Below, piece by piece: positions 40,620 through 60,794 of a stretch of 64,000 nucleotides of DNA. The position numbers and the translations under genes are program-made. The notes beneath the pieces are model-generated. The model saw only the letters and a list, made by a program, of their open reading frames with translations, made no database searches and was not told where the DNA came from. How positions within the stretch are numbered: the stretch's first letter is position 1; every line of letters starts with the position of its first letter. Origin of the DNA: an uncultured Alphaproteobacteria bacterium (lineage in GTDB: Bacteria > Pseudomonadota > Alphaproteobacteria > Rhizobiales > Xanthobacteraceae); contig CAWHFN010000012.1 in the NCBI GenBank assembly GCA_963828475.1, positions 25,439 to 89,438 on the forward strand, read 5' to 3'.

Positions 40620-41128
40620 GACGGAACTCCCGGCGCGGCATTGTCAGCCAGCGTCTTCTGCATCGTGGTGTTGGCGAGCCATTCGCCGTTGAGGGTGACG
40701 GTGTTGCGCTGTTTGGCGGCATAGCCGCGTTTCTTGAAGAAAGGCTCCGCGGTATCGCTGGCGTCGACCGTCAGGGATTTCGCACCGCGGGCGCCCGCCA
40801 GCTTTTCCAGCGCATCCACCAGCATCGACGCAACGCCCTGCCCGGCCACGCTCGGATGGACGAACAGCATGTCGATGTGGTCAGCGCCCTTGAGCGAGGC
40901 GAAGCCGACCGGCGCATTCTGAATGGTCGCGATCAGCGTCAATTGTCCGGCGAGCTTCTTGCCGAACGCCTCCTCGTCCTCGGCGGCCGCAGCCCAGGCT
41001 TCCTGCTGCGCCTCGCTGTAATCGTCGCCGGTCAACTCCTCGATGCTGGCAACGAAGATCGCCGCCAGCATCGGAACATCCGCCGGCAAAAACGGCCGCA
41101 AGCCGGGTTTGGGCAATGCCTGTCCCAT
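40616..41128 (-). CDS. GNAT N-acetyltransferase
   Basis: LFVHPSVAGQGVASML and FFKKRGY; stop overlaps the cimA start. Confidence 0.85.
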   Translation of the reverse strand: MGQALPKPGLRPFLPADVPMLAAIFVASIEELTGDDYSEAQQEAWAAAAEDEEAFGKKLAGQLTLIATIQNAPVGFASLKGADHIDMLFVHPSVAGQGVASMLVDALEKLAGARGAKSLTVDASDTAEPFFKKRGYAAKQRNTVTLNGEWLANTTMQKTLADNAAPGVPS

Positions 41129-41242
41129 CGCGTCAAAATACTCCGAACAGTCTCAAGGCCAGCACGACCGCGGCAACAATCAGCGCCCATTTGATGAAGA
41201 TGTAATAACGCCAGTGTTTCGGGAACGGCGTATCGGGACGGG

Positions 41243-42724
41243 TCATCGCGCGATCTCCCAAGTGGTTACGGGTTTTCCGTCGGCATCCTTGCCGTCCTTG
41301 ATGGCAACGCCCATGGCGGCGAGTTCGTCGCGGATACGATCGGACTCCTTGAAATCCTTTCGCGCTCGCGCTGCCGCACGAGACTTCAGCAGATCGTCCA
41401 CCTTCGCAGGATCAAGACCTTTCTCTCTCGCAGCCTCTTCTTGGAACGCTCGCTTAATGTCGCCTCTTACGTCGTCACTGCGAACATGATCGATTGCCTT
41501 CTCGAAGCCCAACAATTGCAAAGAACCTGCCAATTCATTTGCGGCATCAGCGGGATGATCGGTAGAGCGAGCGGCATTCGCTAGACGATACAGTTCGGTT
41601 AATACCGCCGACGTATTTAGGTCATCCGCAAGGGCATTGAGAACTCCTTCAGATGGCTTCATCTTCAATCGATTGGCAGCACTAGCCGCTTGCCGAAGTT
41701 TACCGTAACTCATCTCGGACTCGGCAAGTCCTGCGTCAGTCCAGTCGAGAGGCTGCCGATAGTGCGTTCTCAACATGTTGAAGCGCAAAATCTCGCCCCA
41801 TCGCGGATCTTTGGGACGGCCACTTAAAAGATCCCGGATCGTGAAGAAGTTGCCGAGCGACTTCGACATCTTCTCGCTTTCGAGCTGCAGGAAGCCGTTG
41901 TGCATCCAGACATTCGCCATGCGGTCGGAATGAAAGGCGCAGCAGGTCTGCGCGAGTTCGTTCTCATGGTGCGGGAACACCAGGTCGATGCCGCCGCCAT
42001 GAATGTCGAACTTTTCGCCGAGATGCTTCCAGGCCATCGCCGAGCATTCGATGTGCCAGCCGGGGCGCCCCTCCACCTTGATGCCCGCGGGCGACGGCCA
42101 CGACGGCTCGCCCGGCTTCGACGGCTTCCAGAGCACGAAATCGGTGTTGTGGCGCTTGTAGGGCGCGACGTCGACGCGGGCGCCCGCGATCATCTCGTCG
42201 AGCGAGCGTTTCGACAGCGCGCCGTAGCGCGGCATCACGGAATTGGCTTCGTTCATTGCCTGCGGCGAGAACAGTACGTGGCCCTCGGCGACATAGGCAA
42301 AGCCGCCGGCAACCAGCTTCTCGATGATCGCGCGCATCTCCGGGATATGCTCGGTCGCGCGCGGTTGTACCGTCGGCGCCAGGCAGCCGAGCGCGGTGAC
42401 GTCGTCCTGATACTGCCGATAGGTCTCTTCGGTAACCTTGCGGATCGCCTCGTTCAGGGGCACGCCGGGATAGTCGCGCGCGGCGCGCACGTTGATCTTG
42501 TCGTCGACGTCGGTGATGTTGCGAACGTACTTTACATGGCCGGCGCCATAGCGATGGCGCAGCACGCGGAACAGCACGTCGAACACGATCGCCGCGCGAC
42601 CGTTGCCGATATGGGCGAAGTCGTAGACCGTCGGCCCGCAGGCATACATGCCGACATTGTTTGGATCGAGCGGCACAAACGGCCGCTTCTCCTTCGTCAA
42701 CGTATCGTAAAGTCGCAGTTCCAT
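41243..42724 (-). CDS. cysS: Cysteine--tRNA ligase
   Basis: [15 protein letters not shown] (HIGH), [23 protein letters not shown] and KMSKS. Confidence 0.97.
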
Positions 42725-42798
42725 GGAAAACCCATCCGTTGCGGCCGGGCGTCCAGTGATCTCGGTTGGGAGAAAAGACGGCCTCAGCCAGCGAATCG

Positions 42799-42849
42799 CT
42801 AGCTAATAATCTCGCGGCAAATGCTGCAGATGGCGAGGAGACCGTTCAT
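42799..42849 (-). CDS. Putative leader peptide [16 protein letters not shown] upstream of cysS
   Basis: ATG…TAG, 16 codons with 2 Cys and 4 Ile; preceded by TTGACG-N18-AATGGT; followed by a hairpin and a U-rich tract. Confidence 0.55.
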
Positions 42850-43037
42850 GGTTCCACCATTGCGGTATCGGGGGAGCGGCGTCAAGCCTTGCTCGTGCCC
42901 GATTTGGAGCCGATCAGGCCGCCGAACCCCGCCGTAACCCTGCCATTCGCTGCCGCCCCGCTGCCTCATGGTTAATCATTATTAACACTTTGGGCCTATT
43001 CCTGAGGGCGGTTCCTCCTCCCCTGCCGGTGTCCTCC

Positions 43038-58653: not shown

Positions 58654-59193
58654 ATGCGTCCATTGCTGGCACTGAGCAATTCAATCGATTGGCTCAATGA
58701 GAAACTAGGCGGCATCTGCAACTGGCTCGTGCTCGCAGCCTGCGTGGTGAGCGCCGCCAACGCCATGATCCGCTACGCCTTCGGCTACTCTTCCAACGCC
58801 TGGCTCGAATTGCAGTGGTACATGTTCGCCGTCTTCGTGATGTTCGGCGCCTCCTATACCTTCAAGAAGAACGAGCATGTTCGCGTCGAAATTCTCTATC
58901 TGATGCTGTCCGAGCGCGGCCAGCTCCGGCTCGATCTGATCGGAACGCTTTGCTTCCTGATCCCGTCCTGCCTGCTGCTCAGCTATCTATCCTGGCCATT
59001 CTTCATGCAGGCCTACGTCGTCGGCGAGGCCTCGAGCAATGCCGGCGGCCTGCTGCGCTGGCCGATCAAGCTCGTCGTTCCCGTGGGCTTCGTTCTGCTG
59101 GCGCTGCAGGGCGTCTCCGAGGTGATCAAGCGCATCGCTGCGCTGAAGGGTTATGTCGTGATCGATGCGAAATACGAGAGGCCCACCCAATGA
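58654..59193 (+). CDS. TRAP transporter small permease DctQ, copy 1
   Basis: ELQWYMF and NEHVRVE motifs, four TM helices; RBS GAGGAG. Confidence 0.88.
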   Translation: MRPLLALSNSIDWLNEKLGGICNWLVLAACVVSAANAMIRYAFGYSSNAWLELQWYMFAVFVMFGASYTFKKNEHVRVEILYLMLSERGQLRLDLIGTLCFLIPSCLLLSYLSWPFFMQAYVVGEASSNAGGLLRWPIKLVVPVGFVLLALQGVSEVIKRIAALKGYVVIDAKYERPTQ

Positions 59194-60794
59194 TCACGCT
59201 GGAGATGATGCCGCCGCTGATGTTCGGCGGCTTGATTCTCGCCATGCTGATCGGCTTTCCGGTGGCCTTCACGCTGGCCGCGCTTGGGCTGTCGTTCGGG
59301 TTCCTGTCGATCTATCTCGGCTTCTTCGACATGAACTTCCTGCAGGCTATCCCCGGGCGAATCTTCGGCAGCGTGCTTTCCAACGAATTGCTGCTGGCTA
59401 TCCCCTTCTTCACGTTCATGGGCTCTGTGCTCGAGCGCTGCGGCCTGGCCGAAGACATGCTGGATTCGATGGGCCAGTTGTTCGGCCCGGTTCGCGGCGG
59501 CCTCGGCTATTCCGTCATCATCGTCGGCTTCATCCTCGGCGCGATCACCGGCACGGTGGCGGCGCAAGTCATCGCCATGGCGCTGATCTCGATGCCTGTG
59601 ATGCTGCGCTATGGCTACAATGTGCGCTACATCACCGGCGTGCTCGCCGCATCCGGCACCATCACCCAATTGGTGCCGCCCTCGCTGGTGCTGATCGTGA
59701 TGGCCGACCAGCTCGGCAAGTCGGTCGGCGACATGTATCTCGGCGCCTGGGGGCCGTCGGTGCTCCAGATCGCGCTGTTCGCCGGCTACACGTTCTTCCT
59801 CGGGCTGTTCCTGCCCCATCACGTGCCGGCCGTGCCGAAGGAAGCGCGGACGCTGACCGGCTGGCCGCTCTGGCGCAAATGCCTGATGGGCATCATTCCC
59901 TCGGCCGTGCTGATCTTCGTGGTGCTGGGTACCATGATGCTCGGCCTGGCGACGCCGACCGAAGCCGGCGCGATGGGCGCGATCGGCGCCATCGTTCTCG
60001 CCGCCATTCACCACAAGGAGCTGAGCGGCAAGGGGCACAAGATGCTGTTGATCGGCATCGCCGCCACCGGCGTCGGCGCGATCGTCGGAATCATGCTCGG
60101 TGAAGGCAAGCTGTTCAAGCTGACCTTCGCGGTGGTCTATCTCGCCGTTGTCTGGCTTTGCCTCGAAGCCGTCCGCATTCCGGACCTGCGCGACCTGATC
60201 AGGCAGGGCTACGAGTCGACGATGCGCCTCTCCACCATGGTGGTGTTCATCCTGATCGGCTCGACCTGCTTCTCCGTGGTGTTCCTCGGCGTCTCCGGCG
60301 GCGTCTGGCTCGAGCACCATCTGACCTCGCTTCCCGGCGGGGTCTGGGGCTTTCTGATCTTCATCAACCTCTTCATTTTCTTCCTGGCGTTCTTCCTCGA
60401 CTTCTTCGAGATCGCCTTCATCATCCTGCCGATGGTGGCGCCGATCGCGCAGAAGGTGCTGGCGCCGGTCGTGGGGCCGGATGCCGCGCTGATCTGGTTC
60501 GGCGTCATGCTGTGCGTCAATATGCAGACGTCGTTCCTGCATCCGCCATTTGGTTTTGCGCTGTTCTATTTGCGCGGCGTCGCGCCCAAGGAAGTGAAGA
60601 GTTCCGACATCTATTGGGGCGCGTTGCCCTGGATCGGCCTGCAGGCGATCATGGTGGCGATCGTGATCGCCTTCCCCGTCACGGTAACGGCGCTGCTCGA
60701 CAAGCCGCTCGACGTCGATCTCAGCAAGGTCAAGATCGTGGTACCGGAAATCGAGCTCCCTCCACCGCTGGATTTCGGCTCTCAAAAGCAATAG
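59190..60794 (+). CDS. TRAP transporter large permease DctM, copy 1
   Basis: LAIPFFTFMG, GTITQLVPPS, TPTEAGA and QTSFLHPPFG; ATGA overlap with dctQ. Confidence 0.92.
   Translation: MITLEMMPPLMFGGLILAMLIGFPVAFTLAALGLSFGFLSIYLGFFDMNFLQAIPGRIFGSVLSNELLLAIPFFTFMGSVLERCGLAEDMLDSMGQLFGPVRGGLGYSVIIVGFILGAITGTVAAQVIAMALISMPVMLRYGYNVRYITGVLAASGTITQLVPPSLVLIVMADQLGKSVGDMYLGAWGPSVLQIALFAGYTFFLGLFLPHHVPAVPKEARTLTGWPLWRKCLMGIIPSAVLIFVVLGTMMLGLATPTEAGAMGAIGAIVLAAIHHKELSGKGHKMLLIGIAATGVGAIVGIMLGEGKLFKLTFAVVYLAVVWLCLEAVRIPDLRDLIRQGYESTMRLSTMVVFILIGSTCFSVVFLGVSGGVWLEHHLTSLPGGVWGFLIFINLFIFFLAFFLDFFEIAFIILPMVAPIAQKVLAPVVGPDAALIWFGVMLCVNMQTSFLHPPFGFALFYLRGVAPKEVKSSDIYWGALPWIGLQAIMVAIVIAFPVTVTALLDKPLDVDLSKVKIVVPEIELPPPLDFGSQKQ

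Follow-up and report, generated by a model that had tools for sequence, protein, structure and literature searches.

The cysS gene of this soil Bradyrhizobium-like bacterium appears to combine two allele classes by recombination, one of the lineage's own kind in codons 1-297 and 448-493, and one that we call type B in codons 298-447. The gene occupies positions 41243..42724, on the minus strand, of the window, i.e., the whole stretch of 64,000 nucleotides of DNA that was analyzed. In the explanation that we hold to be very probable, type B is a homeoallele module exchanged within the family, which was recombined into cysS at conserved arms inside the gene; the hybrid is the sole CysRS found, it is constrained, and its AT-rich codons are a feature of the class as a whole. 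We know of no report of CysRS as a homeoallele. This would be the first described homeoallele of CysRS at the level of a domain, and its two crossover points recur in lineages across a bacterial family. Mosaic genes and alternative forms of aaRS are already known, which makes the swap itself a modest addition. The compositional result is of greater value: two allele classes at the same locus, in the same mutational and expression environment, keep a synonymous GC content of about 0.5 and about 0.85, respectively, despite saturation.

Identity of the gene and its product

The open reading frame, the Pfam matches and the match to the Escherichia coli enzyme identify the 493-residue product as a cysteine--tRNA ligase. 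Pfam places tRNA-synt_1e, the catalytic Rossmann domain, at residues 16-336 (PF01406, E 1.7e-105), DALR_2 at 363-401 (23 bits for a cut-off of 22) and CysS_C at 439-480. The signatures HIGN and KMSKS are found at residues 38-41 and 285-289; the HIGN variant of the HIGH motif is common to all relatives. The E. coli CysRS (1li5, 1u0b) is the best match both in sequence (E 1e-103) and in fold, where the AlphaFold model (pLDDT 84.7) is closest to 1u0b_B, from the CysRS-tRNA complex (E 4e-33). Residues C29, C227 (in HIECSAM) and H252-H253-E254-N-E256 (in FPHHENE) align with identical stretches of the E. coli enzyme, whose zinc/cysteine-binding residues we take to be C28, C209, H234 and E238. C29, C227 and the FPHHENE residues are invariant in 57 type-B proteins. 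This cysS is the only copy found, with one match in the genome (G000), about 6% of which is missing. A single match per genome is also the rule in nearly all of the 400 genomes of the genus that were searched.

A block of low GC and rare codons inside cysS

The tract of codons 298-447 (41384..41833, minus strand) is the lowest-GC stretch of 450 nucleotides in the whole window, and just 0.43% of the 450-nucleotide windows of the genome (6.46 Mb) are as low. Its GC content is 52.2%, compared with 63.1% in codons 1-297. An earlier note on this DNA had counted 222 G+C in the 420 bases of 41401-41820 (52.9%), which is exact, and had named GC3 as a check on the segment. Third positions are indeed poor in G+C there: GC3 is 0.50 in codons 298-447, compared with 0.85 in codons 1-297 and 0.65 in the last stretch, codons 448-493 (Fisher p = 5e-13). 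In windows of 40 codons, GC3 ranges from 0.75 to 0.97 over codons 1-300, falls to 0.40-0.50 over codons ~330-440, and then recovers towards the stop. Ranked by its intragenic GC3 contrast, cysS comes about 20th among 2705 long ORFs. A second apparent dip of this kind, at 58700-60791, is only the non-coding 5' extension of a stop-to-stop ORF.

Codon usage is unusual in the tract as well. Codons used fewer than 3 times per 1000 in this genome (TTA, CTA, AGA, AGT, TCT, ACT and others) account for 15 of the 150 codons of the tract and for 2 of the other 343. Among the codons that the note had called foreign, TTA and CTA are both rare and enriched in the tract, and AAT is found 5 times where 1.4 are expected; GTA has no specificity for the tract, with 2 occurrences inside it and 4 outside. 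The reading frame is intact throughout.

Parts and junctions of the hybrid

The catalytic part of the enzyme (codons 1-297, 41834..42724, minus strand; the 'N1' type) has 96-98% amino acid and 93-94% nucleotide identity to the nearest congeners, which carry the common form that we call type A (L002 of genome G004 and L003 of genome G001, with a CysRS of 471 residues). The C-terminal alpha/beta anticodon-binding domain (codons 448-493 and the stop, 41243..41383, minus strand), recognized by CysS_C, is also of the lineage's own type and has 91-93% amino acid identity to the same two congeners. Between them lies the type-B cassette, which is recognized by the drop of identity, its own clade and the structural model. 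It takes in the last part of the stem-contact fold along with the DALR_2 helical bundle and the linker, and is about 22 residues longer than type A. It starts nine residues past KMSKS and ends at the start of the C-terminal anticodon-binding domain. The positions of the Pfam domains and of KMSKS thus agree with the earlier placement of the segment in the helical region between these two landmarks. The tract aligns to residues ~277-421 of the E. coli CysRS, presumably the helical bundle with the later part of the stem-contact fold before it and the linker or start of the anticodon-binding domain after it.

The AlphaFold model predicts confident helices at residues 309-318, 330-347, 359-366, 371-385, 391-404, 419-434 and 439-454. 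Two insertions are specific to type B in the alignments. One is the pentapeptide RPKDP (residues 303-307, 41804..41818, minus strand), which precedes a conserved stretch of 17 residues and follows the stem-contact helix, where the E. coli enzyme lacks it. The other is a segment of 29 residues after LLGF (residues 408-436, 41417..41503, minus strand), modelled as a loop with an extra helix (419-434) that would take the place of the short linker seen in E. coli and in type A.

At the 5' junction, the codon alignment places the homology arm, of 16 residues, at codons 285-300 (41825..41872, minus strand). The gene is identical to type A through ATC CGG GAT CT and is of type B from TTA AGT GGC CGT, i.e., the switch lies between codons 297 and 300, directly past a 16-residue stretch. 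At the other end, near-identity to the type-A congeners is regained in a homology arm of 24 residues (codons 449-472, 41309..41380, minus strand). The switch falls around codons 448-452, where a 20-residue stretch begins, and the sliding identity to L002 climbs from 59% to 72% and then 86% across 41510-41241. The position of these breakpoints suggests that the module was exchanged by homologous recombination, and the crossovers would have fallen in an almost invariant stretch on either side of it, one of 14 residues on the KMSKS side and one of 17 residues. The region 41100-42000 has no relevant match to known RNA families (Rfam), and no relevant promoter-like site, terminator, or direct or inverted repeat. 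Since there are no repeats or signs of mobility at the tract, an integration scar, which had been one of the causes considered, is not supported.

Different relatives for the tract and its flanks

We compared the gene with those of its close relatives over 4.6 kb, including the upstream genes, cysS, GNAT and cimA. In windows of 90 nucleotides, L002 and L003 are 90-98% identical to it over the whole length apart from 41421-41780, where identity drops to 52-60%. Over the tract, L002-L004 have 41-45% amino acid and 47-50% nucleotide identity to this gene, with several indels. There is no such gap with a congener that carries type B, MAG MFD06298.bin.2.74 (G268; L033/L062): its identity is 88-96% across the whole 4.6 kb, tract included, and the tract itself is 94% identical in amino acids and 91% in nucleotides.

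The trees tell the same story, with the reservation that they are quick trees with long branches and SH-aLRT support only. In the tree of the tract, type B forms one clade (starred support of 99, stem of 0.88) and type A another (starred support of 98). The type-B clade includes genes with different catalytic backgrounds: the catalytic domain is dimorphic (N1 and N2), type B occurs with either form, and other backgrounds are also present in the clade. In the tree of codons 1-297, the carriers of type B are scattered among those of type A, and the starred branches force at least five switches between the two. The cysS studied here belongs in that tree to a clade (starred support of 100) that is made up of six genes of type A and three of type B. 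In the AU test on the N-domain alignment, the monophyly of type B is rejected (p 4e-12), as is that of its close subgroup B1 (p 3e-43); on the alignment of the tract, the N-domain clade of nine rows (this gene, L033, L066 and L002-L007) is rejected as well (p 4e-7). The type-B module thus seems to have been reshuffled against at least five catalytic-domain backgrounds. The separate phylogenies of segment and flanks that the note had called for are hence strongly incongruent (p 4e-12 to 3e-43 for type B), and together with breakpoints at conserved motifs they sustain its idea of a cassette-like, recombinational replacement in an essential single-copy gene.

Distribution of the type-B class

Type B was identified in 4 of 400 species-representative genomes of the genus and in 2 of 400 of the family, the latter from two other genera. 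The tract was found in none of 400 genomes of the order and none of 400 of the class. One genus of another family (g148) has a longer, distant variant of 537 residues, and its GC3 is normal. No reservoir was found in plasmids or phages: tblastn with the tract resulted only in matches of 34% identity on Sinorhizobium megareplicons and none in phages. A search with residues 296-450 retrieved many type-B CysRS, with a close group (B1) at 70-96% identity and a wider group at 50-62%; the few that are named come from 'Bradyrhizobium sp.' and 'Xanthobacteraceae bacterium'. A third rare form of the tract, 'type C', is found in L024 and L026. Carriers of type B keep the native gene order DUF2865-cysS-GNAT-cimA, which is the same neighbourhood as in carriers of type A. 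A distant donor, as evoked in the note, is hence not supported: every type-B tract that we found belongs to a high-GC host of the same family and sits at the native cysS locus. In Bradyrhizobium and other Xanthobacteraceae (in the sense of GTDB), type A is the common form, and type B appears to be its rare, deeply diverged counterpart. In the reading that we favour, the module would behave as a sub-genic homeoallele, with one type per genome, always at the same locus, and repeated exchange between lineages of the family.

One might have thought that a part of the native gene had been remodelled in place, by rapid divergence or by diversifying selection from a toxin or a phage, since the region of the tract is the least conserved part of CysRS in all relatives. 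This has next to no chance of being correct. Tracts of the same class, with 50-96% identity, are present in many other lineages and make up a single clade, which refutes it, and a shift of 0.35 in GC3 cannot arise in one gene while its flanks stay 94% identical to those of congeners. The dN/dS values within type B, given below, also speak against it.

Age and reality of the replacement

In both trees, this gene, that of G268 (L033) and that of a metagenome contig (L066) form a clade. The pairwise dS values of this trio (G000/L033/L066) are 0.37/0.39/0.19 in the tract and 0.27/0.39/0.18 in the N part. Since the tract has diverged about as much as the N part, the swap is older than the divergence of the three. 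In the family-exchange explanation, type B would have taken the place of type A in a common ancestor of G000, G268 and several metagenome lineages, and would have been inherited with its flanks since then. Whether this took one event or two, and in which direction (type B gained by this lineage or type A re-gained by its neighbours), is judged by parsimony on the N-domain tree.

The genome and all the close carriers of type B are MAGs or metagenome contigs, and in one short-read MAG the gene is broken at contig ends inside the tract (L064/L065). One could thus suspect a chimera of assembly or binning, in which reads of two organisms were joined at the conserved motifs. Yet the same mosaic, with both junctions spanned, is present in nine other members of the 90% protein cluster, which come from JGI, ENA and NCBI assemblies and lie on contigs of up to 659 kb. 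Such repetition in independent assemblies, together with the length of the contigs, makes a chimera very unlikely, to the point that we give it almost no credit. The two junctions are in this way repeated in ten distinct sequences, with contigs that reach 304, 587, 659, 672 and 1223 kb, the pairwise divergence of the tract matches that of the flanks, and two switches would need long exact k-mers common to sequences with GC3 of 0.5 and of 0.85.

Constraint on the module

Within type B, dN/dS is 0.05-0.14, compared with 0.08-0.26 within type A, which points to strong purifying selection. Values as low as or lower than those of type A exclude a relaxed protein constraint, and the ongoing diversifying selection that had been suggested for the segment finds no support in them. 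To our eyes, the type-B module appears to be functional and under constraint within the only CysRS found. The genome has one tRNA-Cys(GCA); with a single cysS and these dN/dS values, this suggests that the hybrid enzyme aminoacylates tRNA-Cys. The 74-nucleotide tRNA-Cys(GCA) is 100% identical across the hosts compared, which carry type A (G001, G004, G006, G007, G010, G011 and G024), type B (G000 and G268) and type C (G021). Co-evolution with the tRNA is therefore excluded as the source of the different forms.

Relation to aaRS homeoalleles and mosaic genes

Homeoalleles of aaRS are reportedly the subject of work by Andam, Williams and Gogarten in 2010. Common and rare divergent forms have been described for TyrRS, ThrRS, SerRS and LeuRS (Andam & Gogarten 2011, Biol Direct 6:47, PMC3191353). 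Types A and B of CysRS resemble them in several ways (PMC3191353): the forms are deeply divergent and have the same function (deduced here from the identical tRNA-Cys), they coexist in a higher taxon with one per genome, one common and one rare, and recombination takes place in conserved flanks with synteny kept. In the known homeoalleles, the distribution of the forms conflicts with the phylogeny (PMC3191353); for CysRS, the strong conflict is with the N-domain tree of cysS, which is itself a recombining marker. Unlike in the known cases (PMC3191353), the unit of exchange in CysRS is an internal module of 150 codons instead of a gene, crossovers are at motifs of the coding sequence, and the exchange group is a single family. 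The rare form of CysRS also has a GC3 depression across the class, whereas the term 'GC content' has 0 occurrences in PMC3191353.

Like the penA/pbp mosaics of Neisseria (PMC10926701) and the general framework of mosaic genes (PMC3241670), cysS has in-frame donor blocks in an essential gene with native flanks, revealed by a local drop of identity and by phylogenetic incongruence. The differences are in degree and in kind: the donor block of cysS is about 55% diverged in protein, compared with 5-25% in DNA for mosaic genes (PMC10926701, PMC3241670), and its boundaries recur across many lineages, unlike those of penA/pbp (PMC10926701). For these mosaics, in contrast with cysS, there is a known selective agent (PMC10926701).

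One might ask why a rare type persists. Types A and B could be held together by frequency-dependent selection, e.g., from an inhibitor directed at CysRS, a toxin or a phage factor, which is compatible with the exchange of modules within the family and addresses precisely this persistence. The rare type is deeply diverged, persistent and repeatedly moved across backgrounds, a further rare form exists (type C), and for homeoalleles the reviewer discussion of PMC3191353 raises antibiotics against one form of an aaRS as a potential driver. However, no agent suggests itself as a candidate, the conserved neighbourhood has no linked gene for immunity or a toxin, and positive selection has left no signal. 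We consider such selection improbable.

A low GC3 across the type-B class

The dip in GC3 is not particular to this genome. Among 22 type-B genes available as DNA, 21 have a tract GC3 of 0.45-0.62 for an N part at 0.76-0.92, and the exception has 0.74 in the tract and 0.82 in the N part. The dip is seen with N1 as well as N2 backgrounds, in three genera, and in both long-read MAGs and short-read contigs. In eight type-A genes, the GC3 of the homologous tract is 0.75-0.90. On the average of 14 type-B genes, the edges are sharp at codons ~300 and ~450, and GC3 drops from 0.87 to 0.55 over codons 281-310. The between-gene differences that Lassalle and colleagues described in 2015 are said to be far smaller than the effect of 0.35 in GC3 seen within cysS.

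Third-position identity between the subclades of type B is 0.28-0.39, i.e., these sites are essentially saturated. The positions of A/T-ending codons are not common to the subclades (odds ratio ~1), and GC3 is alike at conserved and variable residues (0.57 and 0.53, respectively), which together exclude site-specific selection for rare codons. Since 21 of 22 carriers have the same dip despite saturated synonymous sites, the low GC3 does not stem from a single recent import. Judging from sequence comparison, it seems to be a regional and long-lived property of the type-B allele class.

These data bear on a more classical reading of such blocks, in which the tract was recently imported from a distant, AT-richer organism and, being unameliorated, keeps the composition of its donor. 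The compositional anomaly and the rare codons are real, the long stem of type B (0.88) fits an origin outside the sampled diversity, and two type-B lineages, L035 and L036, have a higher GC3 (0.62 and 0.74), as if partly ameliorated. We nevertheless find a recent import unlikely. All 22 type-B genes have high-GC3 flanks (0.76-0.92) and native synteny, there is no match similar to type B among the 400 genomes of the order, the 400 of the class, plasmids and phages, and the sole distant relative, in genus g148, has a normal GC3. The subclades are synonymously saturated, yet all have a GC3 near 0.5. The tract has also co-diverged with its flanks for a dS of ~0.2-0.4 with no excess of W>S changes (W>S:S>W of 14:17). 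Two other type-B trios have counts of 34:39 and 39:27, and the comparison is of low power because the flanks also have an S>W excess. A block of low GC and rare codons is thus not, on its own, evidence of a recent or distant import, which calls for caution in annotation.

The dip is regional and sharp-edged, as expected if a second function encoded in the same DNA imposed its AT-richness, e.g., a gene that overlaps the tract or lies antisense to it, a structured RNA or an internal promoter of GNAT-cimA. But every alternative frame is closed across carriers, with 2-19 stops each, and this excludes an overlapping or antisense ORF. Rfam matches, promoter-like sites and repeats are lacking in the tract, and third positions, including the A/T-ending ones, are not shared between carriers. 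A second function is, in our view, highly improbable.

What would keep type B at a low GC3, once exchanged within the family? Two causes are possible, to the same modest degree. In the first, the rare allele seldom meets a homologous partner and loses a force that raises GC and depends on recombination; potential partners for type B are found in only ~1% of related genomes. In the second, the module re-enters frequently from an unsampled, AT-richer reservoir; among the 22 type-B genes examined as DNA, no relative has a low GC3 over the whole gene. Selection for AT-ending codons, or something else, is a candidate ranked below these two. A stronger version of the first, which we find doubtful, is that type B is recombinationally isolated and that its synonymous sites have relaxed to an AT-biased mutational equilibrium, at a GC3 of ~0.5, while the flanks are held at ~0.85.

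There is a parallel between genes, where less homologous exchange goes with AT-richer synonymous sites within a genome, independently of selection on codon usage (Lassalle et al. 2015, PLoS Genet 11:e1004941, PMC4450053). The rarely recombining sequence of cysS would similarly be AT-richer at synonymous sites; unlike in PMC4450053, the contrast is found within one gene and one transcript, and goes with the allele class. The locus offers a compact system in which to ask why bacteria of high GC content keep it when mutation is biased towards AT. If type B were indeed isolated, a high GC3 would be kept by a recombination-dependent force (GC-biased gene conversion, gBGC) and not by expression-linked selection on codons. 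The locus would then provide a natural control within a gene, along with the AT-shifted type C, whose tract also has a low GC3 (0.48 in L024 and 0.55 in L026).

Modular structure of cysS

To the two forms of the tract, the common type A and the type B of the source genome (G000), we add a second dimorphism within the cysS of the genus. It concerns the catalytic domain, which exists in two forms, N1 and N2, and is seen when L015-L018, L022, L024, L026, L036, L068, and L167 are set against L002-L014; it maps to codons ~120-225 of the cysS of the window (42050-42365). N1 is recognized by the motif EHI, the insertion SPQAMN..PRYG, and a further hallmark of 15 residues (not shown), while N2 carries DFVLPRADGKxDM and SPWGRGRPGWH, as do other Rhizobiales. 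GC3 is normal in both forms. Since N1 and N2 each occur with A, B, and C tracts, cysS is a patchwork of multiple modules.

Type C is a third and rare form of the tract homologous to 41384-41833, found in L024 (genome G018) and L026 (G021). It carries an insertion past the KMSKS region (TEKFGGNRW or TKRFGGRKW), and its GC3 is also depressed, i.e., 0.48 and 0.55 in these two loci, versus 0.73-0.76 in the N part of the gene. Intragenic contrasts in GC3 are found elsewhere in G000, where about 20 further long ORFs have a contrast at least as large as that of cysS. Examples are C2:53989-57903, C20:61439-62608, C14:427145-428278, C19:994310-995833, and C12:101400-103307.

Expansions at the type-B insertion site

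The protein P0087 (564 aa, from a JGI metagenome) has around four tandem copies of a unit of ~20 residues (HVKEDNSLRExLMKAFDEHAAR...) within the type-B-specific insertion. These repeats show that large expansions are tolerated at this site. The CysRS of L164-L166 (genus g148 of family f18), of 537 aa, are ~50% identical to part of type B, and their helical insertion, likewise placed after LLGF, is longer still. The GC3 of these loci is normal (0.7-0.95).

We also observed that in the MAG Bradyrhizobium sp. MGr3G3H3I bin_152 cysS is spread over two contig ends (L064 and L065), and the type-B tract is where it breaks. In a short-read assembly, such a split points to low coverage of the locus or to heterogeneity between strains there.

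Surroundings of cysS and tRNA-Cys

Some congeners have lone 3' halves of tRNA-Cys (positions 31-74, 96-100% identical), located 2-13 kb away from the full gene (G004:C17:75084-75127, G001:C160:26230-26274, and on C716 of G013). Integrative elements that have inserted at tRNA-Cys usually leave such halves behind; none is present in G000. Directly upstream of cysS, the 90 nt at 42771-42860 are 97-100% identical in congeners, versus 53-91% for the neighbouring windows, and more distant carriers are still 90-92% identical over this stretch.
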